Positions 11,551 to 37,015 are shown, numbered from the stretch's first letter. The stretch is DNA of 43,362 bases from Gammaproteobacteria bacterium (GCA_041493345.1 JBGPYQ010000002.1:1-43362); one strand, 5' to 3'. Notes: generated by a model from the letters alone, not told the origin. Numbers and translations: made by a program.

Positions 11551-12513
11551 ATGAACCGTGCACGGATTCTTTGTCTCGCGCTGCTGTTCGGTGCAGCAGG
11601 CAGCGCCTTTGCGCAGTATCCCGCCAAGCCTATCCGCCTCGTCGTGCCGTTTCCCGCCGGCGAATCCGTGGACGCCACCGCGCGGCTGGTGAGCCAATCC
11701 TGGTCGGCGGCGCTCGGCCAGCAGATCGTGGTGGACAACCGCGGCGGCGCGGGCGGAACCATCGGCAGCGAGGCGGTCGCAAGATCGAATCCCGATGGCT
11801 ACACGCTCCTGTGGGGCAACGTCGGGCCGCTCGCGATCGGGCCGGGGCTCTACAAGAAGCTCGGCTACGACGTGGCGAAGGATTTCGAGCCGGTGTCGCT
11901 CGTCGCGACTTTGCCCTTCGTGCTGTTCGCGAGCCCGGTGCTGCCGGCGAATTCGGTGACCGAGCTCGTCGCCTACGCCAAGGCGCATCCCGGCGAAATC
12001 AATTTCGGCTCGACCGGCGTCGGCTCGGGCCTGCATCTCATTGCCGAACTCTTCAAGAGCGTCGCCGGCATCCAGATCGTGCACGTGCCCTACAAGGGCG
12101 TGGCACAGGCGCTGCCCGAGATGATGTCGGGCAAGGTGCAGATTGCCTTTAATACGATTCCCGCCTTCCTGCCGCACGTGAAAGCCGGGCGCCTGAAGGC
12201 GCTCGCGATCACGGCAGCATCGCGCTCGCCGCTTTTGCCCGATGTGCCCGCTATGCCGGAAGTGGGCCTCGCCGCCGTGCAGGGCGGGTCCTGGCACGCC
12301 GTGGTCGCGCCCGCCGGCACGCCGCGCGATATTCTCGCGCGGCTGAACCAGACGCTGGTGGCGACGATAGCCGCGCCCGAACTGCGCACGCAACTCACGA
12401 ACCAGGGCGCGCAGCCGGTGGGAAGCTCTCCGGAAGAGCTGGGAAAATTCATGCAGGCCGAAGCGGAAAAATGGGGACGCGTCATCCAGTCCTCCGGCGC
12501 GCGCGCCGATTGA
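11551..12513 (+). CDS. Bug/TctC-family substrate-binding protein
   Basis: 320 aa: signal peptide ..AFAQ then YPAKPIRLVVPFPAGE.., ..GSTGVGSGLHL.., ..VPYKGVAQA... Confidence 0.93.
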   Translation: MNRARILCLALLFGAAGSAFAQYPAKPIRLVVPFPAGESVDATARLVSQSWSAALGQQIVVDNRGGAGGTIGSEAVARSNPDGYTLLWGNVGPLAIGPGLYKKLGYDVAKDFEPVSLVATLPFVLFASPVLPANSVTELVAYAKAHPGEINFGSTGVGSGLHLIAELFKSVAGIQIVHVPYKGVAQALPEMMSGKVQIAFNTIPAFLPHVKAGRLKALAITAASRSPLLPDVPAMPEVGLAAVQGGSWHAVVAPAGTPRDILARLNQTLVATIAAPELRTQLTNQGAQPVGSSPEELGKFMQAEAEKWGRVIQSSGARAD

Positions 12514-12538: not shown

Positions 12539-13510
12539 ATGGACTTATATGAAGGCAATCGTTTTTGCAACATCGTGGCGGCGGTCGCCGTTCTCGCCGC
12601 GATGACCGGTGGGGTGTCCGCGCAGGAAAAAACCGTTGTGATGCTCGGCACGGCGACGCCGGGCGGCGGCTTCCAGATCTATGGCGCCGCGTACGCGGCC
12701 GCGCTCGGCGAGGCGGATGCGACGCTGGTGATCGAGCAGCGCAGCACCAAAGGCAGCACCGAGAACGTGCCGCTGCTCGCGGAAGGCAAGATCGACGTCG
12801 GCCTTGCCACCGGAGAAGTCACCTACGAGGCGCTCGCGGGCATCGGTCGTGCGCCTGTGAACCTGAAAATCATCAACGCGATGTATCCGAACTCCGGCAT
12901 GTTCATCGTGCGCGGCGACAGCCCGTATCGCACGCTCGCCGACCTGAAGGGCAGGCCGATCGCCTGGGGCGCGAGCGGTTCGGGCTTCGTGGTGCTTGCG
13001 CGCTACGTGTTTGACGGCCTGGGCATGGACATCAACAAGGATTTCACGCCGATCTTTCTCGAGCACGCCGGAGACGGCTCGAAGATGGTGCTCGACGGCC
13101 GCGCGGCGGCGCTGTGGGGCGGCGGGGTGGGCTGGCCGGGATTCGTCGAGATATCGAAAGCGCCGTCAGGCGCGCGCTTCATCACGCCCGACGCCGACGG
13201 CATGAAGCGCATCCTCGCGAAATATCCGTTCATCAAGCCGATCACGCTGCCTGCGGGCAGCTATCCCGGCCAGAATGCGCCGGTCGCGGCGCTCGGCTCG
13301 TGGTCGCTCGTGCTCGCGCGGCCGGGGCTGCCCGACGAAGTCGCCTATAAACTGGCACGCGCGCTTCACAAGGCCGAAGCGGCGCTCGGCGCGAAGCTCG
13401 CGCAGGCGAAGGAATCGACGCTCGCCAACACGCTCGCCGCCGCGCCGCGCCAGGATCTGATCCATCCGGGCGTGCTGCGCTACATGCGCGAAGCCGGCAT
13501 ATTGCGCTGA
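12539..13510 (+). CDS. TAXI-family TRAP-type solute-binding protein
   Basis: 323 aa: signal peptide, then ..VVMLGTATPGGGFQIYGAAYA.., ..STENVPLLAEGKIDVGLATGE.. and ..LPAGSYPGQ.., typical of TAXI (immunogenic-protein-type) receptors. Confidence 0.85.
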   Translation: MDLYEGNRFCNIVAAVAVLAAMTGGVSAQEKTVVMLGTATPGGGFQIYGAAYAAALGEADATLVIEQRSTKGSTENVPLLAEGKIDVGLATGEVTYEALAGIGRAPVNLKIINAMYPNSGMFIVRGDSPYRTLADLKGRPIAWGASGSGFVVLARYVFDGLGMDINKDFTPIFLEHAGDGSKMVLDGRAAALWGGGVGWPGFVEISKAPSGARFITPDADGMKRILAKYPFIKPITLPAGSYPGQNAPVAALGSWSLVLARPGLPDEVAYKLARALHKAEAALGAKLAQAKESTLANTLAAAPRQDLIHPGVLRYMREAGILR

Positions 13511-13524: not shown

Positions 13525-14502
13525 ATGAGAAAAATATTCAAGCTCGCGTCGGCCGCGGCGCTCGCCGCGTTTTCGTTCGCTTCGGCAAACATTGTCTTTG
13601 CCCAGGACTATCCGGTAAGGCCGGTAAAAATCATCATCCCGCTCACGCCGGGCTCGGGCGCCGACATCGCCGGGCGCATCGTGGCGAAGCACATGGGCGA
13701 CGCCTTCAAGCAGCCGGTGATCGTGGAGAACCGCCCCGGGGCCGGCGGCCAGATCGGCACGCAGGCGGTGGTAAACGCCGAGGCCGACGGCTACACGCTG
13801 CTGGTGCAATCGGCCTCGCACGCCGCCAACTCCGCGATCTACAAGAGCCTTGCGTACGATCCGTTGAAGGATCTCGTGGATGTCGCGATACTCGGCGTCA
13901 CCCCCTACGTCATGGTGACGGCGAAGGGCGGCGCCTATCCGTCGCTCAAGGCGCTGATCGACGCCGCCAAGGCGAAGCCCGGCGCCATTCCTTTCGCCTC
14001 GGCGGGCGTCGGCAGCTCCACGCACCTCGCGGCGGAATATTTTGCGCAGGTCGCGGGCGTGAAGATGCTGCACATTCCGTACAAGGGTTCTCCCGAGGCG
14101 ATCCAGGACTCGATGGCCGGGCGCACGGCGTTCTACATGGCGCCGATCAATACCGCGGTCGGCCAGCTCAAGGAAGGCAGGCTCGCCGCGCTCGGCGTCT
14201 CCACCGCGAAGCGGGCGGAGGTGCTGCCCGAGGTGCCCTCGATCGCCGAGCAGGGCCTCGCAAATTTCGACATCTCGCTCTGGTTCGGCATGTGGACGCG
14301 CACGGGGACGCCGCAAGCGGTCGTGCGCAAGCTCAACGCCCAGGTGAACGCGATCGTTCAAGGGCCCGAGGTGCGCGAGCAGTTCGACAAGCTCGGCATT
14401 ACGCCCGCGCCCATGCAGCCCGAGGCCTTTGCGAAATTCGTTCGCGAGCAGATCGTCATCTATCAGCGCATCGTCAGGGAGGCCGATATCCAGCCGCAGT
14501 GA
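13525..14502 (+). CDS. Bug/TctC-family substrate-binding protein
   Basis: 325 aa: ..VFAQDYPVRPVKIIIPLTPGSGAD.., ..ASAGVGSSTHL.., ..IPYKGSPEA... Confidence 0.93.
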   Translation: MRKIFKLASAAALAAFSFASANIVFAQDYPVRPVKIIIPLTPGSGADIAGRIVAKHMGDAFKQPVIVENRPGAGGQIGTQAVVNAEADGYTLLVQSASHAANSAIYKSLAYDPLKDLVDVAILGVTPYVMVTAKGGAYPSLKALIDAAKAKPGAIPFASAGVGSSTHLAAEYFAQVAGVKMLHIPYKGSPEAIQDSMAGRTAFYMAPINTAVGQLKEGRLAALGVSTAKRAEVLPEVPSIAEQGLANFDISLWFGMWTRTGTPQAVVRKLNAQVNAIVQGPEVREQFDKLGITPAPMQPEAFAKFVREQIVIYQRIVREADIQPQ

Positions 14503-14600: not shown

Positions 14601-15596
14601 ATGAAGGTCTTTCGATTTTCCGTATTGCCGGTCGCGGCGCTGCTCGCCGCGGCGGCGTGCGCGGTCCATGCCCAGACCAAAGGCAGCGACGCGGCCGCCG
14701 ACTATCCGGCGAAGCCGATCCACATCGTCGTCGGCTTCACCCCCGGGGGCGGACCCGACATTACCGCGCGCTACATCGCGCAAAAGCTCGGTGAAACCTG
14801 GAAGCAGCAGGTTATTGTGGACAACCGGCCCGGGGCGGGCGGCACGGTCGCCGCCGGGCTGGTGGCCCGCGCAACTCCGGACGGCTACACGCTGCTCTCC
14901 GTGTCTTCGGCGCACGCCGTCGCGCCCGCGATCTACTCGAAGCTTTCCTACGATCCGTTCAAGGACCTCTCGGGCATCACCGAGACCGCGAGCTCCAGCT
15001 ACGTGCTGGTCGCCGCGCCCGCGCTCGGAATCCGGACGGTCGGCGACCTGATCGCGGCGGCAAAGGCGAAGCCCGGGCAGCTCAATTTCTCCTCCGCGGG
15101 CGTGGGCAGCGGCACGCACTTCGCCGCCGAGATGTTCAAGGCGATGGCGGCGATCGACGTGGTGCACGTGCCCTTCAAAGGCATACCCGAGTCGCTCACC
15201 GAGACGATGACCGGCCGCGTGCAGTTCTTCATGGCGCCGATAGCGAACGGAGTGAATCTCGTCAGGGACGGCAAGCTCGCCGGGCTCGCCGTTTCATCGG
15301 CGAAGCGCGACCCGCTTTTGCCGCAGGTGCCGACCGTCGCCGAAGCCGGCGTGCCGGGCTACGAGTCGATACTCTGGTTCGGGCTGCTCACGTCTTCCGG
15401 CGTGCCCAAAGCGATCGTGGTGAAGCTCAACCGCGAAATCGTGCGCATCCTCAACGATGCCGAGGTGTTGCAGCGCTGGACCCCGATCGGCCTCGAGCCG
15501 CGGCCGACGACCCCCGAGGCGTTCGACCAGCTGATCCGCGACGACGTCGCCGTCTTCACAAGAATCGCGCGCGCGGCGAACATCAGGGCGGACTGA
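14601..15596 (+). CDS. Bug/TctC-family substrate-binding protein
   Basis: ATG 14601 follows an AGGAGGAG SD. The product starts MKVFRFSVLPVAALLAAAACAVHAQ.., followed by ..DYPAKPIHIVVGFTPGGGPD.., ..SSAGVGSGTHF.. and ..VPFKGIPES... The track ORF start at 14292 is an unsupported extension. Confidence 0.92.
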   Translation: MKVFRFSVLPVAALLAAAACAVHAQTKGSDAAADYPAKPIHIVVGFTPGGGPDITARYIAQKLGETWKQQVIVDNRPGAGGTVAAGLVARATPDGYTLLSVSSAHAVAPAIYSKLSYDPFKDLSGITETASSSYVLVAAPALGIRTVGDLIAAAKAKPGQLNFSSAGVGSGTHFAAEMFKAMAAIDVVHVPFKGIPESLTETMTGRVQFFMAPIANGVNLVRDGKLAGLAVSSAKRDPLLPQVPTVAEAGVPGYESILWFGLLTSSGVPKAIVVKLNREIVRILNDAEVLQRWTPIGLEPRPTTPEAFDQLIRDDVAVFTRIARAANIRAD

Positions 15597-15657
15597 GCTA
15601 CACTTTAGTACGGCTCTGCGAATTCAAATGACGACGAATCTGATGGAGGAAAAACCC

Positions 15658-16671
15658 ATGAAATTCCCGACTCGGCTGCTGATTTTCGCGGTGGCGGCGC
15701 TTGTGTCCGGCGTGGTTCTTGCGCAGGCCCCTTCGACAAGCTCAGAGTCTGCCCTGAGCCCGTCGAAGGGACAGGCCTATCCGTCCAGGCCCGTGCGCCT
15801 GATCGTGGGTTTCCCGGCCGGAGGCCCGGCGGATCTGTTCGGACGCGTGCTCGCGCAGGCGATGGGCGCGAATCTCGGCCAGCAGATCGTGGTGGAGAAC
15901 AAGAGCGGCGTGGGCGGAGTGCTCGGGATTGACGCCGTGGCCAAGGCCGTCCCCGACGGCTACATGCTGGGGCTGAACAACCAGGGGTCCGTGGCGATGG
16001 CGCCGTTCGCGCTGTCGAGCATGCCCTACAACCCGCAGAAGGACCTCGCATTGATCACGACCGTGGTCAAGGTTCCCGAGGTTATCGTCGTGCATCCGTC
16101 GGTCCAGGTGAATAGCCTCGCCGAGCTCATCGCCTACGCCAGGGCGAACCCGGGAAAGGTCAACTACGGCTCCGCGGGAGCGGGCGGCATTACCCATCTC
16201 GCGGCGGAGCTGCTCAAGGCCGAGGCGAAAATCGATATCGTGCACGTGCCGTACAAGGGCGCGGCGCCCGCGGTGAGCGACCTGCTCGGCGGCCAGGTGC
16301 AGATGGGAATCTTCGACGTCCCGGTCGTTCTGCCGCACATCAGGTCGGGCAAGTTCAAGGCGCTCGCGGCGACGAGCGCCAGGCGCGCGCCGTCGCTGCC
16401 CGATATCCCGACCACGGGCGAGGCCGGTTATCCCAAAGTAATTTCCGACAATTGGTACGGCCTCGTTGCGCCGGCGAAAACGCCGGCGGACGTGCTCAAG
16501 CGAATTCACGCCGCGGCGATCGCGGCGCTGCAATCGCCCGCGCTCCTCGATCAGTTCGCCAAGGTGAGCGGAATCGCCTTTCCTTCGACGCCGGAAGAGT
16601 ATGCCGTTTTCCTCTCCGAGGAGCAGGCCAGGTGGAGCGCGATCATCGGGGCGATCGGGTTCAAGGAGTAA
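15658..16671 (+). CDS. Bug/TctC-family substrate-binding protein
   Basis: ATG 15658 (MKFPTRLLIFAVAALVSGVVLAQA) follows a GGAGGA SD. Then YPSRPVRLIVGFPAGGPAD.., ..GSAGAGGITHL.., ..VPYKGAAPA... Confidence 0.92.
   Translation: MKFPTRLLIFAVAALVSGVVLAQAPSTSSESALSPSKGQAYPSRPVRLIVGFPAGGPADLFGRVLAQAMGANLGQQIVVENKSGVGGVLGIDAVAKAVPDGYMLGLNNQGSVAMAPFALSSMPYNPQKDLALITTVVKVPEVIVVHPSVQVNSLAELIAYARANPGKVNYGSAGAGGITHLAAELLKAEAKIDIVHVPYKGAAPAVSDLLGGQVQMGIFDVPVVLPHIRSGKFKALAATSARRAPSLPDIPTTGEAGYPKVISDNWYGLVAPAKTPADVLKRIHAAAIAALQSPALLDQFAKVSGIAFPSTPEEYAVFLSEEQARWSAIIGAIGFKE
15727..15777 (+). repeat. In-frame complete palindromic element (51 nt) at the signal-peptide/mature junction
   Basis: cccttcgacaagctcag (15729-15745) pairs with ctgagcccgtcgaaggg (15754-15770), giving a 17-bp stem with 2 central mismatches. 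The element encodes APSTSSESALSPSKGQA between AQ and YPSRP. Confidence 0.8.
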
Positions 16672-18505: not shown

Positions 18506-19471
18506 TCACTCCACTTTTACGCCGCCCGCCTTCACCACCTTCGACCAGAGCTCGTATTCGCCCCGGATTCGCGCGGTCAGCTCGTCGGGCCCGCTTCCCA
18601 CGGCGATCGAGCCCTGGACGAGGAGGCTCCCTTTCATCTCCGGCGCGTTGACGATCGCGGAGATCTCGCGCTGGAGCTGCTCGATGACCGGCGCGGGCAG
18701 GCCCGCCGGCCCGAGCACCGCGTACCAGTAGTCGATCTCGAATCCCTTCAGCCCCGCTTCCGCCGCGGTGGGCACCTCCGGCAGCCCCGGATAGCGGTTG
18801 CGGCTCGCGATCGCCAGCGCCTTGAGCCGGCCGCTCTTGAAGTGCTGCAGCGCGGACAGCACCGCCGGAAAGGTCACGTCCGTTTCTCCCCCGAGCATCG
18901 CGGTCATGGCCGGAGCGATGCCCTTGTACGGCACGTGGGTCATACGGATGCCGGTCAGCTGCATCATCAGCTCGCCCCCAAGATGCACGGGCGTGCCCAC
19001 GCCCGAGGAGGCGAACTTGACGGCCCCCGGACGCGATCTTGCGTACTCGATCAGTTCGGCGAGGCTCTTCGCGGGGACCGAAGGATTCACGGCCACCACC
19101 ACGGGCGCCGTTGCCACCAGCGTCACCGAAGTGAAATCCTTGTTGATGTCGAAAGGCAGATTGGGATAGAGCGCCGGATTGCTCGCGTGCGAGGAAAACG
19201 CCATGATCAGCGTATAGCCATCGGGCGCGCTCCTCGCCACGATCTCGGTTGCAATATTGCCGGCGGCCCCCGCCCGGTTGTCCACGACCACCGTCTTTCC
19301 CCAGCGCTCGCCGAGCTTCTGCGCGACCAGCCGCGAGATGATGTCCACGCCGCCTCCCGGCGTGAAACCCACCAGCAGGCGCACCGGCTTCGCCGGATAT
19401 TGCGCCGAGGCGGGAAAGGCAGCGAACACGGACAAAACGGACAGCGCAAGTACGTGGAGAAGTGTTTTCAT
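18506..19471 (-). CDS. Bug/TctC-family substrate-binding protein
   Basis: 321 aa: MKTLLHVLALSVLSVFAAFPASAQYPAKPVRLLVGFTPGGGVD.., ..ASSGVGTPVHL.., ..VPYKGIAPA... Confidence 0.93.
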   Translation of the reverse strand: MKTLLHVLALSVLSVFAAFPASAQYPAKPVRLLVGFTPGGGVDIISRLVAQKLGERWGKTVVVDNRAGAAGNIATEIVARSAPDGYTLIMAFSSHASNPALYPNLPFDINKDFTSVTLVATAPVVVAVNPSVPAKSLAELIEYARSRPGAVKFASSGVGTPVHLGGELMMQLTGIRMTHVPYKGIAPAMTAMLGGETDVTFPAVLSALQHFKSGRLKALAIASRNRYPGLPEVPTAAEAGLKGFEIDYWYAVLGPAGLPAPVIEQLQREISAIVNAPEMKGSLLVQGSIAVGSGPDELTARIRGEYELWSKVVKAGGVKVE

Positions 19472-20452: not shown

Positions 20453-20608
20453 GCGCGACCGTCACGATAATCGAAAAGAATCAATCGGTGCAATCCGGGC
20501 CGACCGGAAGGCAACCCTCGCGGCCCTAAATGGGATCTATCGTTTTTTCATCCGCTGGACGCTACAATCGCGGGTGCCAAGGATGATCCTCCGCGGCCCC
20601 GCGAGGAA
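20453..20608 (+). repeat. Direct repeat copy 1 (156 bp) bracketing the DarAB-like cassette
   Basis: 20453-20494 matches 26768-26809 (42 bp, 1 mismatch). 20495-20608 matches 26940-27052 (4 substitutions + 1 indel, counted by hand). Confidence 0.85.
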
Positions 20609-20657
20609 GCAATTGACAATCAACAAGCTAGTAGAAGCCCCTGCTATCCGATCGCGA

Positions 20658-20685
20658 TTCACAACGTGGCGGCAGGCGATAAAAT
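20658..20685 (+). promoter_or_regulatory. Candidate sigma70 promoter giving a leaderless or near-leaderless darA-like transcript
   Basis: TTCACA (20658-20663), a 16-nt spacer, then TAAAAT (20680-20685), which ends 7 nt before ATG 20693. There is no Shine-Dalgarno between them. Confidence 0.3.
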
Positions 20686-20692
20686 TCAATAC

Positions 20693-21610
20693 ATGAAACG
20701 CGTACTGGTTGTTCATTTTTCGCAAACGGGGCAGCTCGCGCGCGTAATACGGCAATTGGTGTCGCCGCTGGCGTTGGCTGCGGACGTGGAGCTGGTGGAG
20801 GAGGTGCTGCGCCCGCGTCAGCCGTATCCGTTTCCCTGGCCGTTCTGGAGTTTTCTAGACGTCATGCCGGACACCGTGCTGCTCGAACCGCCGGTGCTCG
20901 AACCGCTGTCGGTGCGCGCGGGCGAGCATTTCGAGCTCATCGTGCTGGCGTATCAGGTGTGGTATCTAGCGCCCTCGGGTCCGATGACGGCGTTTCTCAA
21001 GAGCCGGACCGGCCAGCAACTGTTACGTGGCCGACCGGTGGTGACGGCGATCGCGTGCCGCAACATGTGGTTGATGGCGCAGGAGACGGTCAAGCGACTG
21101 ATCCAGGATGCAGGCGGGCAGTTGCGCGACAACGTCGTCTTCACCGACCAGGGGAGCGCGTTGGCGACCTTCATTACTACACCGCGCTGGTTGCTGACCG
21201 GTCGGCGCGACGCGTTCTGGGGCCTGCCGGCGGCGGGCGTGGCGGAGGAGGAGATCGCGAATGCCGATCGCTTCGGTAGCGCGCTGCTGAGCGCCCTGCG
21301 CACAGATCGCGAGCGCGAAAACGCGCCGATGCTCGCCGGTCTGGGCGCCGCGAGCGTGGACTCACGGCTGATTTTCAGCGAGTGTGCCGGGCAGCGCGCG
21401 TTTTCGGCATGGTCGCGCTTGATCCGTTTCGGCGGGGCGCCGGGTTCGACAGGCCGCTCACTGGTGCTCGCGTTGTTTTGCGTCTATCTTGTTGCGATGA
21501 TACTTACTGTTGTGCCGGCGAGCCTGCTGTTGCAGCGGTTGATGCGTCCGCTGTTCGCGGGGCGACTGGAATTGCAAAGGGCGTACTACGAGTTGCCGTC
21601 AGGGCGATAA
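20693..21610 (+). CDS. darA: DarA-like protein (flavodoxin-like N-terminus, C-terminal TM helix), putative dialkylresorcinol-pathway partner of the adjacent KAS III-like enzyme
   Basis: It starts MKRVLVVHFSQTGQL.. (flavodoxin-like beta1-loop) and has ..ELIVLAYQVWYLAPSGPM.. and a hydrophobic ..LVLALFCVYLVAMILTVVPASLLL.. near the C-terminus. It lies immediately upstream of a DarB-type ketosynthase. The family call is from memory of DarA annotations and is not verified. Confidence 0.55.
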   Translation: MKRVLVVHFSQTGQLARVIRQLVSPLALAADVELVEEVLRPRQPYPFPWPFWSFLDVMPDTVLLEPPVLEPLSVRAGEHFELIVLAYQVWYLAPSGPMTAFLKSRTGQQLLRGRPVVTAIACRNMWLMAQETVKRLIQDAGGQLRDNVVFTDQGSALATFITTPRWLLTGRRDAFWGLPAAGVAEEEIANADRFGSALLSALRTDRERENAPMLAGLGAASVDSRLIFSECAGQRAFSAWSRLIRFGGAPGSTGRSLVLALFCVYLVAMILTVVPASLLLQRLMRPLFAGRLELQRAYYELPSGR

Positions 21611-21647
21611 CGGACATCGCAATGCGGAAACAAACGAAGAATCGGGC

Positions 21648-22805
21648 ATGAATCGTCATACCGCTTATATCACGCGCACCTCGGTTTGTTTGCCGAACGC
21701 TCCGGTCGAGAACAATGATACGGAAGCGATCCTGGGCCAGGTGGGCGAGCGCCCGTCGCGCACGCGGCGCATCATCCAGCGCAGCAACGGCATCCGCCGC
21801 CGCTATTACGTCATCGATCCGGCCACCGGCGAGCCGAACTACACAAATGCCAGCCTGACCGCCGATGCGGTCAGGGGATTGGCCGGCGACGGTTTCGCCC
21901 TCGAGGACATGGCGTGCCTAGTATCCGGAACGTCCAACCCGGACCAGCTATTGCCCAACCACGCCGTCATGGTCCACGGCGAACTTGGAGCATCGGTGTG
22001 CGAAGTGGCGGCCACGGCCGGCGTCTGTCTTTCGGGCGTCACGGCCCTGAAGTACGGCTGGCTGTCAGTGATGTCGGGCAGCGCGCGCAACGCGGTCGTG
22101 ACCGCTTCGGAGGTTTCTTCGCTGGGTTTGCGCGCGCACAACTATGGTGCCGAGTGTCATGGCGATTCGCAGGTACAGGAAGCGCATCCCGAGCTCGCGT
22201 TCGAGAAGGACTTTCTGCGCTGGATGCTGTCCGACGGCGCGGCCGCGCTGCTGCTCGAGCCGAAGCCTCGCCCCGGGCTCAATCTGCGCATCGAATGGAT
22301 GGACATCTTCTCCTATGCGCACCTGTTGCCGGCATGCATGTACTTGGGCGCGGAAAAGCAGCCTGACGGTAGGCTGCGCGGCTGGATGCGTTATTCGGCG
22401 CACGAGCGCGAAACGAAATCGCTGTTCGCGTTGAAGCAGGACATCAGATTGCTCAACGACGAGGTCGTGGAGCATACCTTGGTGAAGCCGCTCCGCCGCG
22501 TTGTTGCGCAACGTTCTATTTCCGTTGGAGACGTGGACTGGTTCCTGCCGCACATCTCGTCGGAATTTTTCCGCGCGCCGGTCGCCAGCGGGCTCGCTCA
22601 CGCGGGATTGCCAGTCCCCGCGGAGCGTTGGTTCACCAATCTCACATGGGTGGGCAATGCTGGGTCCGCCTCGATTTTTATCATGCTCGACGAACTGTTG
22701 CGCAGCGGCCGACTGCGTGAAGGGCAACATCTCCTGTGCTTCGTACCGGAGAGCGGACGCTTTTCGAGCGGCTTCATTTATCTCACGGCGACGGCAAATG
22801 CGTGA
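21648..22805 (+). CDS. darB: KAS III (FabH)-like condensing enzyme, DarB-like
   Basis: 385 aa with the N-terminus ..AYITRTSVCLPNAPVENNDTEAILG..PSRTRRIIQRSNGIRRRYYV... The Cys-His-Asn triad candidates are ..TAGVCLSGV.., ..WFLPHISS.. and ..WVGNAGSASIFIMLDEL... Confidence 0.72.
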   Translation: MNRHTAYITRTSVCLPNAPVENNDTEAILGQVGERPSRTRRIIQRSNGIRRRYYVIDPATGEPNYTNASLTADAVRGLAGDGFALEDMACLVSGTSNPDQLLPNHAVMVHGELGASVCEVAATAGVCLSGVTALKYGWLSVMSGSARNAVVTASEVSSLGLRAHNYGAECHGDSQVQEAHPELAFEKDFLRWMLSDGAAALLLEPKPRPGLNLRIEWMDIFSYAHLLPACMYLGAEKQPDGRLRGWMRYSAHERETKSLFALKQDIRLLNDEVVEHTLVKPLRRVVAQRSISVGDVDWFLPHISSEFFRAPVASGLAHAGLPVPAERWFTNLTWVGNAGSASIFIMLDELLRSGRLREGQHLLCFVPESGRFSSGFIYLTATANA

Positions 22806-23202
22806 GCGCGACGTGCCGCAGGAGGGCAACACCGCGCTTGCGGGCCGCCGCAAGGCGATTTTTGCGGTCGGCGACGACGGAAAGTTGCGGCTCGTGCCCT
22901 CGCGCGGCTGGGAAGTGGAAGAGATCGTCACGCGCCAGGCGGTGGAGGACCTGGAGCGGCGCGCGCAAGAGGCGAAGGAACGCGTCCTCGCCGGCCAGAC
23001 CTCGCCCCTCGAATACCATATGTATCGGGCGCGCATGGACATCGCCTTGCTGTCGCAGAGCACCGGCTTGTGGCGCTGGCGGGTGCGGCGTCACTTCAAG
23101 CCGCACGTGTTCGCGCGCTTGCCGCTGTCGCTGCGCGAGCTTTATGCCGGGGCGCTCGGCATTTCCGTGGAAGCCTTGGCAAAGGTGGAGGAGCGGTGGT
23201 GA
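22798..23202 (+). CDS. Small helix-turn-helix (XRE/Cro-like C-terminal domain) protein
   Basis: ATG 22798 overlaps the DarB-like stop by 8 nt. It is 134 aa, and the C-terminal ..MDIALLSQSTGLWRWRVRRHFKPHVFARLPLSLRELYAGALGISVEAL.. fits an XRE-type HTH pattern. Confidence 0.6.
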   Translation: MRERDVPQEGNTALAGRRKAIFAVGDDGKLRLVPSRGWEVEEIVTRQAVEDLERRAQEAKERVLAGQTSPLEYHMYRARMDIALLSQSTGLWRWRVRRHFKPHVFARLPLSLRELYAGALGISVEALAKVEERW

Positions 23203-24203
23203 CCGCTTTCACGCACCGACGCGCCTCGCATTGCGAATCCGGCGTGATGTCATCGCTATTGCACCACCACGGCTTGCCGATGTCCGAGCCGATGGCGTTC
23301 GGCCTGTCGTCGGCGCTGGCGTTCGCCTACCTGCCGTGCATCCGCATCAACGGGATGCCGCTGGTGGCGTTTCGCATGCCGCCACGCGCGATCGTCAAGG
23401 GCCTGCAGCGCGGCTTGGGATTCGGTATGCGTTTCGAGACTTTTCGCTCGCCTGAGAGCGGTACGGCGCGCCTCGATGCGCTGCTCGACGCGGGCAGGCT
23501 TGTCGGATTGCAGGCGGGCATCTACTGGCTGCCGTATTTTCCGCCCGACCTGCGGTTTCACTTCAACGCACACAACCTGCTGGTTTACGGCCGCGAGGGC
23601 GACGACTATCTCGTCAGCGATCCGGTGGCCGAGGCGTCGGTTCGCTGCGCGCGCAAGGACATGGAGAAGGCGCGCTTCGCGAAAGGAGTGCTTGCGCCCA
23701 AAGGGCTGCTCTATTACGTGACCACACCGCCGTCGGAGCCTGACTGGGCGCGTCTCGGCCGGCGTGCCCTCGCCCGCACCGCGGATATCATGCTGCGCAC
23801 CCCCTTGCCGCTGATCGGCGTGCGCGGGATCGGAATGCTGGCACGTCGCGTCAAGCGACTGCCTCTCGACGGCGGCGGCGAGCGTGCTCGCCTCTATATC
23901 GGCCACATCGTGCGCATGCAGGAGGAAATCGGCACCGGCGGCGGCGGGTTCCGTTTCATGTACGCGTCGTTTCTGCAGGAGCTGGCCGGCAAGACCGGCT
24001 ATACTCCGCTCGATGGACTTGCGGTTCGCCTGATTGAAATCGGCGACCGCTGGCAGGAGTTCGCCGTCGCGGCCGCGCGCATGATCCGTCGTCGCGACCC
24101 GCTGGCGCCGCCGGCGCTGGCAGAGCGCCTGCGCGCGCTTGCCCGCGACGAAAGGCTTTTCTTCCAGGAGTTGCGCAGCGTTCAGCGCGCATGGGCATGC
24201 TGA
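23196..24203 (+). CDS. BtrH_N-domain (papain-like, ACP-acyltransferase-related) + DUF4872-like protein
   Basis: GTG start (23196 or 23199) overlaps the upstream stop (GTGGTGA) and follows an AAGGTGGAGGAG SD. The N-terminus ..FTHRRASHCESGVMSSLLHHHGLPMSEPMAFGLSSALAFAYLP.. is the typical BtrH_N opening. Confidence 0.65.
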   Translation: MVTAFTHRRASHCESGVMSSLLHHHGLPMSEPMAFGLSSALAFAYLPCIRINGMPLVAFRMPPRAIVKGLQRGLGFGMRFETFRSPESGTARLDALLDAGRLVGLQAGIYWLPYFPPDLRFHFNAHNLLVYGREGDDYLVSDPVAEASVRCARKDMEKARFAKGVLAPKGLLYYVTTPPSEPDWARLGRRALARTADIMLRTPLPLIGVRGIGMLARRVKRLPLDGGGERARLYIGHIVRMQEEIGTGGGGFRFMYASFLQELAGKTGYTPLDGLAVRLIEIGDRWQEFAVAAARMIRRRDPLAPPALAERLRALARDERLFFQELRSVQRAWAC

Positions 24204-25120
24204 ACATCGAGGGATTGTCATTTCACTATCCCGGCAGCACCGAAACGGTGCTGGATGGCGTGACCCTCGTCATCCCGGACGACGGGATATTCGGATTGCT
24301 GGGGCCGAACGGGGCCGGCAAGACCACGTTGATCTCGATACTCGCCGGCCAACTGCGCGGCGCGACCGGACGCATAGCCGTCAGCGGCGAGCCGCTCGAA
24401 AGCGTGCGCCGTCGCCAGCCGCACTGCCTCGGACTGGTGCCACAGGAGTGCGCGTTCTACCCCATGCTGACCTGCCTGGAGAATCTGCACTTCTTCGGCG
24501 GCGTGCAGGGGCTGCGCGGCGTCCGGCTCAGGCAACGCGTCGAGAGCGTGGTCGGGTTCACCCGCATCGAGGGAGTGCTCAAGCGTCGCGCCGGGCAGTT
24601 GTCCGGCGGTCTCAAGCGCCGCCTGAATCTCGCCATCGGCCTGCTCACGGAACCGGAAATGCTGCTGCTCGATGAGCCGACCGTGGGCGTGGATCCGCAA
24701 TCACGCGCGTTTCTCCTCGATTCCATCCGCTCGCTCGCAGGCAAGGGCAGGATCATCCTCTACACGAGTCACTACATGGAGGAGGTGCAGGCGATCTGCG
24801 ATAGCGCTGCGATCATCGACCGTGGCCGGGTGCTGGTGTCTGGGAGGCTGGCCGAGGTGCTGCTGGACGGGTCCGGTTCGCTGACGTTGCGTTTGCGCGC
24901 GCAGCTGCCGGACGCGCTCGCCGCGGACTGGCGGGCGCGCTACGCGCTGCGCGAGGATGGCGTGGCGCGCTACCACCTGCGCGTGTCTTCGGCCGCGGCG
25001 GCGGCGCAGGTGATCGAGGCAGCGCGAGCCGCTGACTGCGAGCCGGTCGCGATCAGCTACGGGCAGCGCGACCTCGAGCAGCTCTTCATGCAACTGACCA
25101 ACCGTTCGCTGCGCGACTGA
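24191..25120 (+). CDS. ABC transporter ATP-binding protein (ABC-2/drug-export type)
   Basis: Walker A GPNGAGKTT, signature LSGGLKRRL and Walker B LLLDEPT are present. An alternative start is ATG 24197. Confidence 0.92.
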   Translation: MGMLNIEGLSFHYPGSTETVLDGVTLVIPDDGIFGLLGPNGAGKTTLISILAGQLRGATGRIAVSGEPLESVRRRQPHCLGLVPQECAFYPMLTCLENLHFFGGVQGLRGVRLRQRVESVVGFTRIEGVLKRRAGQLSGGLKRRLNLAIGLLTEPEMLLLDEPTVGVDPQSRAFLLDSIRSLAGKGRIILYTSHYMEEVQAICDSAAIIDRGRVLVSGRLAEVLLDGSGSLTLRLRAQLPDALAADWRARYALREDGVARYHLRVSSAAAAAQVIEAARAADCEPVAISYGQRDLEQLFMQLTNRSLRD

Positions 25121-26307
25121 TGCACCGCCTGCTTGCCATGTGGAAGAAAGAATGGCTCGCGCTCGCGCGCGATGTCCACGGTCTCGCGGTCCTGTTCGTG
25201 ATGCCCGCGGCGTTCATCGTCATCATGTCGCTGGCGTTGAGCGACGCGTTCAAGGCCGATACCGGCCACCAGACCGATTTCGCAGTGCTGGCCGCCGATG
25301 GCTCGAACTTGGCGGAACGGCTTGCACGAAGACTGGAGGGCGACGGTTTTCGCGCCGCACCCGCGCCAGACGATGAAGCTGCGGCGCGCGCCGGCGTACG
25401 CCAGGGAAAACCCGGATTGGTCCTGCTCGTGCCGCGCGCATTCGAGCGCGGCTTGCGCGAGCCTCCGGATCGAACGAATCCTTCGCAGGCGCTTACGCTG
25501 CTCGCCGATCCCGCGTTGCCGCCTGCGCAGCTCGCTGTCTTCCAGCATCGCGTCCTAGGCATGGTGCTGGGACTGCGCGTGTCTGCCGCGGCTCGTATCT
25601 CCGGCATTGCGGACGATACCGGCGCGTTCGACCTGAAACGGGCGGCGACATTGAGCATCGAAGTGGTCGGCAATCCACGCGCCGGTCGTCCCTCCTCGGT
25701 GCAGCAAAACGTGCCGGCATGGCTCATCTTCGGCATGTTCTTCGTGGTAATGCCGATCTCCTCGCTGTTCATCGTCGAACGGCGCGAGGGCACGCTCGCG
25801 CGCTTGGCGAGCCAGCAGGTTCCATTCTCGCTGCTGTTGCTTGGCAAGGTGGTGCCGTTCTTCGTTGTCAATCTGGGGCAGGCGGCGCTGATGCTGCTGG
25901 CCGGCCGCACGCTGGTGCCGTGGCTAGGCGGCGAACAGCTGGCGCTGCCGGCGCGCTGGGACCTCCTCGCCGCCGTCGCGGCAAGCACGAGCCTGGCCGC
26001 GATAGGCTGGGGCTTGCTGGTAGCGGTATGTGCGCGCACGATGGAACAGGCGACCGTGATCGGCGGCGTCGGAAATATTCTCGCTGCCGCCATGGGCGGT
26101 ATCATGGTGCCGCGTTTCGTGATGCCCGACACCATGCAGGCCTGGGTGGATCTGTCGCCCATGGCCTGGGCGCTGGACGGATTTCATGCCGTGATTTTGC
26201 GGCAGGGCGGCGTGTTGGACATCCTCGCGCCGTGCCTCAAGCTGTTGTTGCTTGCCGCCGTGCTGTTCGCCGCCACGCTCTGGGCGCATCATCGGCGCCG
26301 CATCTAG
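25120..26307 (+). CDS. ABC-2 family transporter permease
   Basis: TGATG overlap with the ATPase gene. 395 aa with an N-terminal TM helix, a large extracytoplasmic loop and a C-terminal bundle of hydrophobic helices (..WLIFGMFFVVMPISSLFIVERREGTL..), typical of YhhJ/YbhS-type ABC-2 permeases. Confidence 0.88.
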   Translation: MHRLLAMWKKEWLALARDVHGLAVLFVMPAAFIVIMSLALSDAFKADTGHQTDFAVLAADGSNLAERLARRLEGDGFRAAPAPDDEAAARAGVRQGKPGLVLLVPRAFERGLREPPDRTNPSQALTLLADPALPPAQLAVFQHRVLGMVLGLRVSAAARISGIADDTGAFDLKRAATLSIEVVGNPRAGRPSSVQQNVPAWLIFGMFFVVMPISSLFIVERREGTLARLASQQVPFSLLLLGKVVPFFVVNLGQAALMLLAGRTLVPWLGGEQLALPARWDLLAAVAASTSLAAIGWGLLVAVCARTMEQATVIGGVGNILAAAMGGIMVPRFVMPDTMQAWVDLSPMAWALDGFHAVILRQGGVLDILAPCLKLLLLAAVLFAATLWAHHRRRI

Positions 26308-26350: not shown

Positions 26351-26484
26351 CTACGGCCTGATCTGCGACCACAGCTTGTCGAGGCGCTTGTAGGAGACCG
26401 GGTACGGGGTCTTGAGTTCCTGGGCAAAGAGCGAGACGCGCAACTCCTCGATGCGCCAGCGGAAATCCTCCAGCCGGGGATCGG
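26351..26484 (-). pseudogene. hrpA: 3'-terminal remnant of an hrpA-type ATP-dependent helicase gene
   Basis: Own minus-strand translation gives ..ETDPRLEDFRWRIEELRVSLFAQELKTPYPVSYKRLDKLWSQIRP* (stop 26353..26351). This matches the conserved extreme C-terminus of HrpA (..RW..EELRVSLFAQ.L.T..PVS.KRL...W). No upstream helicase body is present. Confidence 0.6.
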
Positions 26485-26490
26485 TTTCGC

Positions 26491-26580
26491 CCGCTCGCCT
26501 TCCACCGACAGCTCAACGCGACCCACTGTCCACGGCGCAACCAAGCCCAGAAGCTGTTGATACAGTTCGACGTCTCGCAT
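26491..26580 (-). pseudogene. 5' remnant (about 30 codons) of an ISL3-family transposase gene
   Basis: MRDVELYQQLLGLVAPWTVGRVELSVEGE matches the conserved ISL3 transposase N-terminus (..ELY..LLGL..PW.V..V.L....). The SD AAGGAGG sits in a ggcctc/gaggcc hairpin just upstream. The reading frame then loses similarity and abuts the hrpA stub. Confidence 0.6.
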
Positions 26581-26767: not shown

Positions 26768-27052
26768 GCGCGACCGTCACGATAATCGAAAAGAATCAAT
26801 CGGCGCAATATACCAGCGAGCGGTTTGATGGCGCTGGCGAAGAATGGATCTTCCGGTCCTTTGTTTCCTGAAGCTTCACCCGCTCGCCCGCAGACACCGC
26901 TGCCTGGCGGCGCCTCGCCCCAACGTCAAACACCGCCTTCCGGGTCGACCGGAGGGCAACCCTCGCGGCCTAAATGGGATCTATCGTTTTTTCATCCGCT
27001 GGACGCTACAATCGCGGGTGCCAAGGATTATCCTCAGCGGCCCCGCGAGGAA
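26768..27052 (+). repeat. Direct repeat copy 2, split by a 130-bp insertion (26810-26939)
   Basis: See copy 1. 26768-26809 and 26940-27052 are the homologous parts. It lies immediately upstream of the DUF2846/beta-barrel gene. Confidence 0.85.
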
Positions 27053-27083: not shown

Positions 27084-28136
27084 ATGAATCAGCTGCGCGC
27101 ATGCCTTTCGGTGAGCGGCGCTCTCTTGCTCGCCGGTCTGTTTTCTGCCCCGCCCGCGCACGCCCAGGACGATGCCCGGCAGGCCACCCCGCCGCCCGGC
27201 AAGGCGCTGGTGTTCGTTTTTCGCAGCGAGCGTGAGCCGGTAGCCGCGCGGGTGCCGGTGCTCGTGAATCTGGAGCCCGTCGGCGAGCTGGAAAACGGCA
27301 CCTTCACAACCGCGACCGTCAGTCCGGGAAGGACTCACCTGCGTGTCGGCGATCGCGTGCTGACCATAATCTCGCTCGAGGCCGCGGCCGACCAGAGCTA
27401 TTTCGTGTGGGTTGAGGCCCTCGCCGGCCTGACGCCGGTGCGAACAGAGGTGCGTGTGGTGAGCGAATCCGAGGGTCGCCGCTCGATCGCGCAAAGCCGC
27501 TTCGTCGAGGTCGCGCCGGCGACGAGGGCCGTCGCGCCGCGCTCCCAGCAGCCGATCTACGCCGCCAAGCCTGCTGCAACGCAACCGGCAGCTGCCCGGA
27601 CGATACCCGCCTCCACAGAGTCGGGCCGCGACTGGGACTTTGCGCTCATCGCGAACGGGGGTACGTTCAAATTGGCCAATGGCAACCAGGTGATCGCCGG
27701 CCTCGCAAGTACCTACGATACGACTTCCAATCCCGTATTCGGTGTTGAGGCCGAGTGGCGCAGCAAGACGGGCATTGCCGTGGGCGGCGAGGTCTTTTAT
27801 TACAAGAATGATCTGGTCGCGACCGGAACCATTCTCAGTGGCCAGCAGGAAGTGCTCGCATTAATGGTGAACGGAAAGTATTACTTCCGCGCGGCAAGCT
27901 GGTTCTATCCTTTCGTGGGCGCCGGTATCGGTTCCGCCACTGCCACCTATAGTGGTGACATCACGGGGACGGGGACAGGTCTGGCTTATCAGGGCCTGGC
28001 GGGCGCGGAATTCCGCTTCGAGCACGTCGGTCTCTATGTGCAGTACAAGCGTCTTTCCTCCACCACCGGGAGTTCCGGCAAAGAGGTGAAGGTCGGCGGC
28101 AGCGGTATTCTTGCCGGAGTAAGTATCATCTTCTGA
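27084..28136 (+). CDS. Outer-membrane protein: N-terminal DUF2846-like domain fused to a C-terminal 8-strand-type beta-barrel
   Basis: ATG 27084 starts MNQLRACLSVSGALLLAGLFSAPPAHAQ (signal peptide). ..GKALVFVFRSE..GTFTTATVSPGRTHLRV..SYFVWVEA.. is DUF2846-like. An A/P/Q-rich linker follows, then alternating-hydrophobic strands ending ..GILAGVSIIF (terminal Phe). Confidence 0.75.
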   Translation: MNQLRACLSVSGALLLAGLFSAPPAHAQDDARQATPPPGKALVFVFRSEREPVAARVPVLVNLEPVGELENGTFTTATVSPGRTHLRVGDRVLTIISLEAAADQSYFVWVEALAGLTPVRTEVRVVSESEGRRSIAQSRFVEVAPATRAVAPRSQQPIYAAKPAATQPAAARTIPASTESGRDWDFALIANGGTFKLANGNQVIAGLASTYDTTSNPVFGVEAEWRSKTGIAVGGEVFYYKNDLVATGTILSGQQEVLALMVNGKYYFRAASWFYPFVGAGIGSATATYSGDITGTGTGLAYQGLAGAEFRFEHVGLYVQYKRLSSTTGSSGKEVKVGGSGILAGVSIIF

Positions 28137-28208: not shown

Positions 28209-29186
28209 TTACTCCGGCTTGATGCCGGCTTCGCGCACGAGCCGGCCTTTCTTTTCAAATTCCGCCCTGACGTGCTCGGTGAACTCCTCGGGCGATGCGC
28301 TCGCTTTGAGCTCGACGCCGCGCTCGAGGAAACGGTTGCGCAGGTCCGGCGCGCGCACGGCGCTATTGACTGCTTCGTTCAGGCGCGCCAGGATCTCGCG
28401 CGGCGTTCCCGCCGGGGCCATGAGGCCGTTGAAGGTGATATCTTCGTAGCCCGGCACGCCCGACTCGTCCACCGTGGGCACATCGGGAAGGAGCGGCGAG
28501 CGCTTCAGGCTCGTGACGGCCAGCGCCCGCAATTTTCCCGCCTTGATGTGAGACGCCGAAGTGCTCACCTGGTCGTACATCATCATGACTTGACCGCTGA
28601 TCACGTCGACCAGCGCCTGCGAATTGCCCTTGTAAGGGACGTGCAGCATTTTCACCCCCGCCTGGCGGTTGAAGAGCTCGGCCGCCATATGGCCGGTGGA
28701 GCCGTTTCCCGCGGACGCGTAGGAAATCTCACCCGGCCGCGCTTTGGCAAGCGCGATCAGCTCCTTTACCGACTGCGCGGGCAGCGCGGGATTCGCGACC
28801 AGCACCTGCGGCACAAGGCAGGTGAGCGTGACACCGGCAAAGTCCTTCAGCGGATCGTAGCCGGGGTTCGCCACGATCAGGGGCACGGTGGCGAAGGTGT
28901 TGGCCATCGCGAGCAGCGTATAGCCGTCCGCGGCCGACTTCGCGACGAACTGCGTGCCCACGAGGCTCGACGCGCCGGGCCGGTTCTCGACGAGGACCGG
29001 CTGGCCGAATCCCCTCGCGATCTGCTCCGCGATCGTGCGCGCGACGATATCCACGTTGCCGCCCGCCGCGAGCGGAACGATGATCCGGATCGCGCGGTTG
29101 GGATAATCGGCCGCACTCTGGCCGGGCGCGGCGGCCGAAAAACCTGCCGCAAGAACCACCGCAGAAAAAATGCGGGCGAATTTCAT
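28209..29186 (-). CDS. Bug/TctC-family substrate-binding protein
   Basis: 325 aa: MKFARIFSAVVLAAGFSAAAPGQSAADYPNRAIRIIVPLAAGGNVD.., ..ASAGNGSTGHM.., ..VPYKGNSQA... Confidence 0.93.
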   Translation of the reverse strand: MKFARIFSAVVLAAGFSAAAPGQSAADYPNRAIRIIVPLAAGGNVDIVARTIAEQIARGFGQPVLVENRPGASSLVGTQFVAKSAADGYTLLAMANTFATVPLIVANPGYDPLKDFAGVTLTCLVPQVLVANPALPAQSVKELIALAKARPGEISYASAGNGSTGHMAAELFNRQAGVKMLHVPYKGNSQALVDVISGQVMMMYDQVSTSASHIKAGKLRALAVTSLKRSPLLPDVPTVDESGVPGYEDITFNGLMAPAGTPREILARLNEAVNSAVRAPDLRNRFLERGVELKASASPEEFTEHVRAEFEKKGRLVREAGIKPE

Positions 29187-35738: not shown

Positions 35739-36722
35739 TCAATCCAGCTTCGCTCCGCTCTCCTTGACGAGCTTCGCCCATTTGGCGAGGTCGGCGAGCA
35801 TGAAGAGACGGAAGTCCTCGGGCGTGGTGCCGGCCGGCTCCGAGCCGTCCGCCACGATACGCTCGCGTATGTCGGGCCGGTTGAGGATCTTGACGAGCTC
35901 GTCGTGCAGCCGCGTGACGATGGGCCTGGGCATCCCGGCGGGACCGACTATGCCGTACCAGCCCACGACTTCGAAGCCCGGCAGCACTTCCGCCATGGCC
36001 GGGAGCTCGGGCAGGACCGCGAGGCGCTTGGGCGCGGTGACCGCGAGCCCGCGCAGCTTCCCGGACCGCGCCAGGGTTTGCGCCGCCTGAATGCCGGCGA
36101 AATTGAAGTGGTATTGCCCGGCGAGCAGGTCCATCAGCGCCGGCCCCGAGCCCTTGTACGGGATGTGCTCGGCCTTCACGCCGGTCATCAGCTTGAAGAG
36201 CTCGCCCGCGAGATGCCCGCCGGTGCCGTTGCCGGCCGAACCGTAATTGAGCGGCCCCTTGAAGTTCTTGGTCCAGTCCATGAATTCCTTGAGGTTCGTC
36301 ACCGGCGTCGCCGGGTTCACCACCAGCATCAACCCGGCGGTCGTGAGCTGCGTGATCGGCGTGAAACTGTTCACCGGGTGATAGGGCAACTTCGGATTCA
36401 GCGCCGCGTTCACCGTGTGCTGGTGATAGGCGAGGAGCAGCGTGTAGCCGTCGGGCGGCGCGTTCGCCGTCAACTCCCCGGCGATCACGCCCGATGCGCT
36501 CGCGCGGTTGTCCACCAGCACCGGCTGCTTGAGCACGTCGCTCAACTGCGCACCGAACACCCGCGCGAGAATATCGGACGTGCCGCCCGCCGCCGCCGCC
36601 GTGATCAGGCGGATCGGGCGGGTGGGGTAGTCCTGCTGCGCTTGGGCCGGAGCGGCGAGGGCGAGGCCGAGCGGTAGGAGGAGTGCGCTGAAGGCACGGG
36701 AAAGCGAAGGGCGGGATTTCAT
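35739..36722 (-). CDS. Bug/TctC-family substrate-binding protein
   Basis: ATG 36722 starts MKSRPSLSRAFSALLLPLGLALAAPAQAQQDYPTRPIRLITAAAAGGTSD.., followed by ..GSAGNGTGGHL.. and ..IPYKGSGPA... The track ORF start at 36980 is an extension through a low-G+C spacer. Confidence 0.92.
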   Translation of the reverse strand: MKSRPSLSRAFSALLLPLGLALAAPAQAQQDYPTRPIRLITAAAAGGTSDILARVFGAQLSDVLKQPVLVDNRASASGVIAGELTANAPPDGYTLLLAYHQHTVNAALNPKLPYHPVNSFTPITQLTTAGLMLVVNPATPVTNLKEFMDWTKNFKGPLNYGSAGNGTGGHLAGELFKLMTGVKAEHIPYKGSGPALMDLLAGQYHFNFAGIQAAQTLARSGKLRGLAVTAPKRLAVLPELPAMAEVLPGFEVVGWYGIVGPAGMPRPIVTRLHDELVKILNRPDIRERIVADGSEPAGTTPEDFRLFMLADLAKWAKLVKESGAKLD

Positions 36723-36871
36723 GGCGCTTGTCCTCGGTTGGAGCAGACACTGGGTCCAATGATGGACTCCTTCTGATACCGGCTCAACGCCGGCCGCCGG
36801 GGCGCGCAGCGCAGAGGGAACCCGAAAGCGCAGCTTTTTGGGCGGGTCCGGTTGAGCGCCGTGTCCGGCTC

Positions 36872-36961: not shown

Positions 36962-37015
36962 TAGAGATTCTCCAATTCACTTATTTTACTATCGCTTTGA
37001 TACACTGCCCGATCA

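Follow-up and report, generated by a model that had tools for sequence, protein, structure and literature searches.

Background

In dialkylresorcinol (DAR) biosynthesis, DarB forms a cyclohexanedione (CHD) by condensation of a beta-ketoacyl with an alpha,beta-unsaturated acyl thioester, and DarA aromatises this product. The classical darABC cluster is the dialkylresorcinol cluster of Pseudomonas, and StlD of Photorhabdus (PDB 5gk0) is a stilbene/CHD ketosynthase. A longer cluster was described in Azoarcus BH72 (azo0283-0293): darA and darB are followed by darD, a conserved hypothetical gene, darE, encoding a BtrH-like peptidase, darF and darI, encoding the ATPase and the permease of an ATP-binding cassette (ABC) transporter, darC and darJ, encoding an acyl carrier protein (ACP) and a ketosynthase, and finally darK (Schoner et al. 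2014, PMC3949708). An identical order was reported for Dechloromonas aromatica RCB (Daro_2367-2375) and Variovorax paradoxus S110 (Vapar_3382-3390) (PMC3949708, Tables S1-S2), and in Sideroxydans lithotrophicus a quartet of darA, darB, a hypothetical gene and a BtrH-like gene lies within a polyene cluster (PMC3949708). In E. coli, the Azoarcus dar proteins produced a DAR; Azoarcus itself makes arcuflavin, a xanthomonadin-type aryl polyene esterified to this DAR (PMC3949708). Here we analyse a block of six genes at positions 20693-26307 of a 43,362-nucleotide stretch of DNA from a Gammaproteobacteria bacterium (GCA_041493345.1, JBGPYQ010000002.1:1-43362), hereafter the window. We consider this block to be, most probably, an 'extended' dar cluster reduced to six genes, of the type that is found in Betaproteobacteria and many other Gram-negative bacteria and that supplies DAR to an arcuflavin- or flexirubin-type pigment.

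The cluster type, which makes the DAR moiety of yellow aryl-polyene pigments, is already published, curated and very widespread, and the window copy is a reduced and displaced form of it. Only two points make this copy unusual: its ACP and ketosynthase genes are missing, and it has been moved away from the pigment cluster. A seemingly odd gene set turns out to be a standard, widely distributed dar cluster, and little is at stake in this respect.

Identity of the six genes

An earlier note on this DNA, made from the sequence alone, had proposed a dar (dialkylresorcinol) cassette of six tightly packed or overlapping genes on the + strand, accompanied by unusual partners. The layout is exactly as described, with six + strand open reading frames (ORFs) at 20693-26307 whose ends overlap or abut, and the dar identity holds as well, since models for the DarB family, the DarG family and DarH are all matched above their curated cut-offs. 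The partners, however, are ordinary ones: darAB is accompanied as standard by the small protein, the BtrH_N/DUF4872 protein and an ABC-2 exporter, as seen in the published clusters (PMC3949708), in the existence of NCBIfam models for DarG and DarH, and in 70 of 72 loci surveyed below.

The second gene, darB (21648-22805, + strand), encodes a 385-residue ketosynthase (cyclase) of the StlD/DarB family. Its product scores 547.3 bits against the NCBIfam model of this family, NF005293 (cut-off 450), with residues 6-381 covering profile positions 1-377 of 378, and aligns over its full length with the StlD structure 5gk0 at 451 bits, against 44 bits for the best FabH structure and 34-70 bits for FabH models and structures overall. 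Cys127, His302 and Asn337 coincide with the motifs of StlD in the alignment, the histidine being marked by the H-to-A variant 5gk2, and an ACP_syn_III_C domain is also present. The Cys/His/Asn triad and DarB-like character attributed to this 'FabH-like condensing enzyme' are therefore real, but the enzyme is of the DarB/StlD type and not a FabH; the housekeeping FabH that the earlier note had envisaged as part of its refutation is contradicted by the same scores. On sequence grounds, we assign the darB product at the level of the StlD/DarB family only.

Directly 5' of darB, wherever this could be tested, lies the darA-like gene (20693-21610, + strand in the window), identified by fold, by synteny and by the names of its relatives. 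It encodes 305 residues with a flavodoxin-fold N-terminal domain followed by C-terminal membrane helices. The protein has thousands of homologues, and NCBI uses the name 'dialkylresorcinol condensing enzyme' for some that are 78% identical to it. Among family members from 29 diverse loci, seven match the FMN_red domain and six match Flavodoxin_4, while the family profile finds a flavin mononucleotide (FMN) flavoprotein in PDB at an E-value of 0.0027. An AlphaFold2 model (pLDDT 72, pTM 0.76) shows a five-stranded flavodoxin-like domain and then long C-terminal helices, and Foldseek places it with flavodoxins, WrbA and FMN flavoproteins at E-values around 1e-5. The domain matches, the profile match and the modelled fold together support its previous description as a flavodoxin-like/transmembrane protein resembling DarA, and the protein is presumably the aromatase that converts CHD to DAR.

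The third gene (22798-23202, + strand) encodes a 134-residue protein that matches the NCBIfam family model NF053536 (DarG_fam) with 161.8 bits, well above the cut-off of 70. We call it darG after NCBIfam; it corresponds to darD of Schoner et al. 2014. Had this protein been correctly seen as an XRE-type helix-turn-helix (HTH) protein? Sequence methods show almost nothing of the kind: Pfam HTH_26 is matched by three of 30 family members at E-values of 0.086 or more, and comparison of the family profile with PDB sequences returns only noise. At the level of fold, the description finds some support. The AlphaFold2 model (pLDDT 73) starts with a hairpin and a long helix and ends in a bundle of five helices. 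Its best Foldseek match is NGO0477 (3kxa; E-value 0.02, probability 1.0), followed by many XRE-family HTH proteins at probabilities of 0.5-0.9, none of them at an E-value of 1e-3 or less. A Cro/C1(XRE)-like HTH fold in the C-terminal half of DarG is thus plausible, at the fold level only.

The fourth gene, darH (23196-24203, + strand; 335 residues), was said to encode a BtrH_N + DUF4872-like protein, and both domains are matched end to end (PF14399, positions 1-134 of 134; PF16169, positions 1-173 of 173). The protein also matches NF053550 (DarH_acyl), the equivalog model for 'BtrH-related acyltransferase DarH', at 446 bits with a cut-off of 300. The motif H-C-E-S-G (His12-Gly16) is invariant in the family alignment, and no solved structure was matched among PDB sequences. 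The names call for some caution: DarG and DarH of NCBIfam are darD ('conserved hypothetical') and darE ('BtrH-like peptidase') of Schoner et al. 2014 (PMC3949708), while 'darG' and 'darH' in Table 1 of that paper denote an unrelated PhD/PilT toxin-antitoxin pair in the Azoarcus cluster. A literature search for where NCBIfam took the names DarG and DarH from turned up no open paper.

The last two genes are, as expected, an ABC ATPase and an ABC-2 permease, both recognised by Pfam. The ATPase ('darF'; 24191-25120, + strand; 309 residues; PF00005, ABC_tran) has the drrA subfamily as its best NCBIfam match, below the cut-off, and is most similar to exporters of the drrA/nodI type. The permease ('darI'; 25120-26307, + strand; 395 residues) matches PF12698 (ABC2_membrane_3) and PF01061 and is further identified by its synteny.

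Prevalence of the gene order

To place the cassette among its relatives, we ran a DarH profile against a single genome of each species and obtained matches in at least 586 genomes. Synteny was then counted by tblastn on the best 80 of these (at least 586) loci, 72 of which had enough upstream sequence for the upstream counts and 60 of which had at least 6.5 kb downstream for the downstream counts. The set DarA-DarB-DarG-DarH is complete in 70 of the 72 loci, with darA and darG in their usual places, the latter between darB and darH. The ABC pair is syntenic with the dar genes in 55 of 60 loci, either co-directional (32) or convergent (23), the convergent form occurring mostly in Pseudomonas and other Gammaproteobacteria. 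An ACP gene stands beside the permease in 52 of 60 loci and a ketosynthase gene in 55. Taxonomically, these loci span no fewer than eight phyla or classes (Beta- and Gammaproteobacteria, Verrucomicrobiota, Desulfobulbia, Holophaga, Planctomycetota, Leptospirales and Sulfurospirillum). In loci L031, L041, L044, L045, L048, L049 and others of the Pseudomonas type, the ABC-ACP-ketosynthase part converges on darABGH with a gap of 1-3 kb between the two.

DarG and DarH are thus near-universal companions of DarAB (70 of 72 loci), and they mark a real gap in our understanding of DAR, flexirubin and arcuflavin biosynthesis.

Loss of the ACP, ketosynthase and DarK genes

The earlier note saw no ACP gene, and there is indeed none: no ACP-like sequence was found in the 43-kb window at an E-value of 0.1 or less, and no annotated gene in it has a PP-binding match. 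Neither a DarJ-type ketosynthase nor DarK was found anywhere in the window. The cassette accordingly has neither the dedicated darC ACP of a canonical darABC cluster nor the ACP, ketosynthase and DarK genes that follow the permease in the nine-gene extended cluster; a remnant of hrpA comes after the permease instead. As the counts above indicate, the ACP-less state is a minority one, but it is not unique. The same six-gene, ACP-less form occurs in the closest relatives of the window copy, namely L093 (95% DarH identity), L094 (91%) and L009-L011 (87%). Since L009, L093 and L094 share this form, the loss of ACP, ketosynthase and DarK predates the event that created the window arrangement. A further six-gene cassette is found in L008 (77% DarH identity), flanked by pcnB and folK and with no polyene gene closer to it than 10 kb, while L006 and L007, with a similar DarH identity, have the nine-gene form at the same pcnB/folK place.

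In L093, L094 and L009-L011, the cassette adjoins, in divergent orientation, an aryl-polyene cluster encoding a 99-residue ACP, two AMP-ligases, an ApeI-like dehydratase, a lipid A-type acyltransferase, LolA_3 and an MMPL exporter. To judge from these relatives, an ACP is encoded next door in the ancestral setting of the cassette. On the other side, where the contig is long enough (L009-L011), the permease is directly followed by a convergent full-length hrpA. ACP-less six-gene mobile cassettes of this sort are natural test cases for two questions: which ACP feeds DarB, and can DAR be uncoupled from the aryl-polyene pigment?

Relocation of the window copy

In the window, the cassette stands in quite another place. 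Its left edge carries a 156-nt direct repeat (20453-20608), which is a duplicated piece of the intergenic region between an amidohydrolase gene and an outer-membrane protein (OMP) gene; the second copy, found like the first by a repeat search and also apparent from its sequence, lies at the right edge (26768-26809 and 26926-27052), before the OMP gene (27084-28136). This second copy is interrupted by about 116 nt (26810-26925) that are absent from the first. The repeat has just two copies in the window, where none would be expected by chance. Homology to the region upstream of darA in the relatives begins about 95 nt before the ATG, exactly at the end of the 156-nt repeat, and these ~95 nt of native upstream DNA (20600-20692, + strand; alignment with L093, L094 and L009) were carried along with the cassette. 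A promoter scan gave one sigma-70-like match (20658-20685), not above chance.

At the other end, directly after the stop codon of the permease, we found the last ~45 codons of hrpA with the stop codon (26351-26497, - strand), that is, of the very gene that is convergent with the permease in the closest relatives. This remnant is apparent from its translation and from DNA alignment with L009, and matches the ends of DUF3418 (positions 540-582 of 582, E-value 6e-17) and of the HrpA model TIGR01967 (positions 1243-1284 of 1284). Abutting it is a 30-codon N-terminal stub of an ISL3-family transposase (26491-26580, - strand), which tblastn against annotated plasmids aligns, at 47-60% identity and an E-value of 3e-4, with the N-terminal ends of proteins annotated as ISL3 family transposases; too short for the model libraries, it has no Pfam or NCBIfam match. 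The repeat and the homology borders together lead us to conclude that about 5.9 kb, from the darA upstream DNA to the hrpA tail, were inserted with insertion sequence (IS) debris into the amidohydrolase-OMP intergenic region, which was duplicated. Judged by these borders, the window copy is a relocated one that comes from the hrpA/aryl-polyene junction. Since the same arrangement and the same junctions were recovered in five independent assemblies of different samples, it is not an assembly chimera. A search with the exact OMP protein for the empty target site (the amidohydrolase beside the OMP gene without the cassette) led back to the window's own arrangement only.

The observations on which the earlier note had based a horizontal origin were accurate. 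Codon choice does differ from the flanks, with more CGT (0.15 against 0.04 in 27 flanking genes), TTG (0.21 against 0.07) and GTT (0.11 against 0.07); GC content at third codon positions is 0.80 against 0.85, and the overall difference is marked (chi2 of 170 with 41 degrees of freedom), though a few flanking genes are just as atypical. The block is also bracketed by repeats and IS debris, the repeats being real and the debris consisting of the 30-residue ISL3 stub next to the hrpA 3' remnant. The cassette was relocated into its present place, from a donor that may have been the same genome or another one, and 'horizontally acquired' stands only to the extent of this move. A composite transposon or IS-bounded island was considered and rejected, as the 30-codon ISL3 stub is present on one side only and both edges consist of directly repeated host intergenic sequence rather than IS ends.

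The hrpA/aryl-polyene junction itself is occupied in some genomes and empty in others. When JGI metagenomes were scanned with the closest relative's aryl-polyene AMP-ligase, this retrieved soil contigs (L108, L112, L115 and L116) in which hrpA is directly beside the first aryl-polyene genes (h131 gene), with no dar cassette. In L009, the cassette lies between hrpA and the aryl-polyene genes and is bracketed by two versions of the hrpA tail, one intact and the other a decayed orphan (7307-7360 and 13178-13231; 54 nt, 80% identity), which suggests, as far as sequence can tell, insertion as a unit with target duplication. The empty contigs and the duplicated tail in L009 argue that insertion or loss of the whole six-gene cassette has happened on more than one occasion, accompanied every time by a duplication of target DNA. 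Six-gene blocks are thus seen at the hrpA/aryl-polyene junction (present or absent), between pcnB and folK, and in the window's TctC island between 156-nt host duplications. A possible but rather doubtful extension is that the ACP-less block forms a self-contained, repeatedly relocated module, moving through a circular intermediate, integrated by recombination, with a target duplication of 50-150 nt and perhaps supplying free exported resorcinols uncoupled from pigment.

Proposed product and alternative explanations

The gene identities, the synteny, the loss of the three genes and the relocation from the hrpA/aryl-polyene junction come directly from our analysis, and the chemistry of the first two steps below is taken from the literature. 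DarB would take two thioesters derived from fatty acids and join them head to head, giving a 2,5-dialkyl-cyclohexanedione, which the membrane-anchored, flavodoxin-fold DarA would oxidise to the DAR. With no darC, darJ or darK, the acyl substrates would have to be provided by the housekeeping fatty-acid synthase or by the ACP that belongs to an aryl-polyene cluster, and we infer such a cluster elsewhere in the window genome. DarH, which is BtrH-related and has a papain-like BtrH_N domain, would most likely transfer an ACP-bound aryl-polyene acid (an aryl-polyenoyl group) to a DAR hydroxyl. The esterified product would be an arcuflavin- or flexirubin-type pigment, and the ABC-2 transporter may carry the lipid out of the inner membrane. 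The earlier suggestion of an exported, acyl-modified resorcinol rather than a classical DAR fits this known type of cluster (arcuflavin, flexirubin); it does not amount to a new class of product.

Several results weigh against this interpretation. The DarA-like protein matches no Pfam or NCBIfam model, even at an E-value of 10 or less, although these libraries may contain no DarA model; the earlier note would have taken such a failure, combined with a FabH-type ketosynthase, as a refutation. The names of the relatives, the synteny and the fold are DarA-like. The darB product reaches only 460.8 bits against the exception-level model NF053539 ('resorcinol_DarB'), whose cut-off is 550, and DarG scores 119.5 bits against the flexirubin DarG equivalog NF053545, below its cut-off of 170. 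No open paper reporting a biochemical test of DarG or DarH was found in a literature search. No aryl-polyene gene, ACP or ketosynthase is present within the 43-kb window, and the JGI scan with the AMP-ligase revealed none from the window's own samples (Ga0534148/Ga0534149) among the matches listed. The pigment partner in the window genome is therefore a putative one.

Could the cassette work alone, its free dialkylresorcinols or cyclohexanediones being exported by the ABC-2 transporter as antimicrobials or signals? This is essentially what the earlier note had in mind. It would agree with the absence of aryl-polyene genes over 43 kb, with the retention of an own exporter and ~95 nt of native upstream DNA, with the six-gene cassette of L008, which likewise has no polyene genes nearby, and with the production of free DAR in E. 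coli by the Azoarcus dar proteins alone (PMC3949708). In Azoarcus, however, dar and arc likewise lie apart in the genome; the DAR nevertheless goes to the pigment, and no free DAR was detected (PMC3949708). DarH has moreover been kept under purifying selection, with a ratio of non-synonymous to synonymous substitution rates (dN/dS) of 0.13-0.25, which implies a further acylation step, and the cassettes of the nearest relatives adjoin an aryl-polyene cluster. We therefore hold a stand-alone producer to be unlikely.

It is harder still to see the cassette as a dead or redundant copy, a stranded by-product of an IS-mediated rearrangement that is unexpressed and decaying. The ISL3 stub, the gene fragment and the duplicated intergenic DNA around it, the missing ACP, ketosynthase and DarK, and a codon usage atypical for its neighbourhood might all be read in that way. 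All six reading frames are intact, though, with conserved start/stop overlaps and no frameshifts relative to the relatives, and every cassette gene has a dN/dS of 0.12-0.29 in comparison with five relatives (L093, L094, L009, L008 and L006). The cassette is thus under purifying selection across this divergence as a whole, these values not being specific to the period since relocation. The same sequence is present in five assemblies of different samples, and the ACP-less state is older than the move, being common to L009, L093 and L094. Decay is very unlikely on this evidence. As for a generic fatty-acid or efflux operon, made up of a housekeeping FabH and an unrelated ABC pump, which the earlier note had also envisaged as a refutation, the ACP_syn_III_C domain of the ketosynthase and the proximity of the ATPase to drrA/nodI-type exporters are all that would recommend it. 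FabH scores of 34-70 bits against 547 for the DarB-family model and 451 for StlD, the matches to DarG- and DarH-specific models and the conserved synteny with darA refute this idea, to which we give practically no chance. A pigment-directed, six-gene extended dar cluster remains the interpretation that we favour.

Other genes in the window

The genes around the cassette have no relation to dar and make up a catabolic neighbourhood of the kind typical of Burkholderiales. At least eight paralogues of TctC/Bug-type periplasmic receptors (5035-6027, 11551-12513, 13525-14502, 14601-15596, 15628-16671, 18506-19471, 28209-29186 and 35739-36980) are interleaved with amidohydrolases and dehydrogenases, and two tandem tannase/feruloyl-esterase genes lie at 38622-42187.

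Two low-GC patches were also noticed. In the first (GC 0.56-0.61), a gene for an N6/N4 DNA methyltransferase (8443-9564, + strand) is convergent with an ORF of 236 residues with no Pfam match (9561-10271, - strand); the two (8443-10271) are probably a restriction-modification pair that was acquired separately from the dar block. A similar neighbourhood exists in L006, where an N6_N4 methyltransferase and an XhoI-type endonuclease (L006:15620-17351) lie a few kb from the dar cluster, and a methyltransferase is also found near dar in L007. The presence of a methyltransferase near dar both in L006/L007 and in the window is probably a coincidence. The second patch (37016-38302, + strand; GC 0.58-0.59) contains an ORF of 428 residues with only a sub-threshold match to Kelch repeats.

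Comparison with known dar clusters

The nearest counterparts of the window cassette are found in uncultured soil Burkholderiales (L009-L011, L093, L094, L099, L125 and L138), which have the same six genes at 80-95% identity and likewise lack ACP, ketosynthase and DarK. Their cassettes adjoin an aryl-polyene cluster, whereas that of the window lies among TctC-receptor and amidohydrolase genes, between direct repeats of ~156 nt and next to an ISL3 stub; it nonetheless keeps the 3' end of hrpA, the neighbour of the cassette in these relatives.

The clusters of Azoarcus, Dechloromonas and Variovorax begin with the same six genes in the same order and orientation, and loci from relatives of the published organisms, in Dechloromonas, Variovorax and a metagenome-assembled genome of Azoarcus, show 49-63% identity to the window proteins. 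In these published clusters the permease gene is followed by darC, darJ and darK, all three of which are absent from the window, and in Azoarcus the PhD/PilT toxin-antitoxin pair lies between the two ABC genes, where the window has none.

With the Bacteroidota flexirubin clusters, the proposed pathway shares its chemical logic, a DAR and an aryl polyene joined by an ester. The relatives of the window cassette are proteobacterial, however, its DarG matches the flexirubin equivalog weakly and below the cut-off (119.5 bits against 170), and the polyene genes beside the relatives' cassettes are xanthomonadin/arcuflavin-like. Compared with classical Pseudomonas darABC and Photorhabdus StlD, the window shares a DarB/StlD-type ketosynthase that aligns over its full length and has the Cys-His-Asn triad, as well as a DarA-like gene immediately upstream of it. 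The DarC ACP is absent, and DarG, DarH and the ABC exporter are additions to the minimal three genes.

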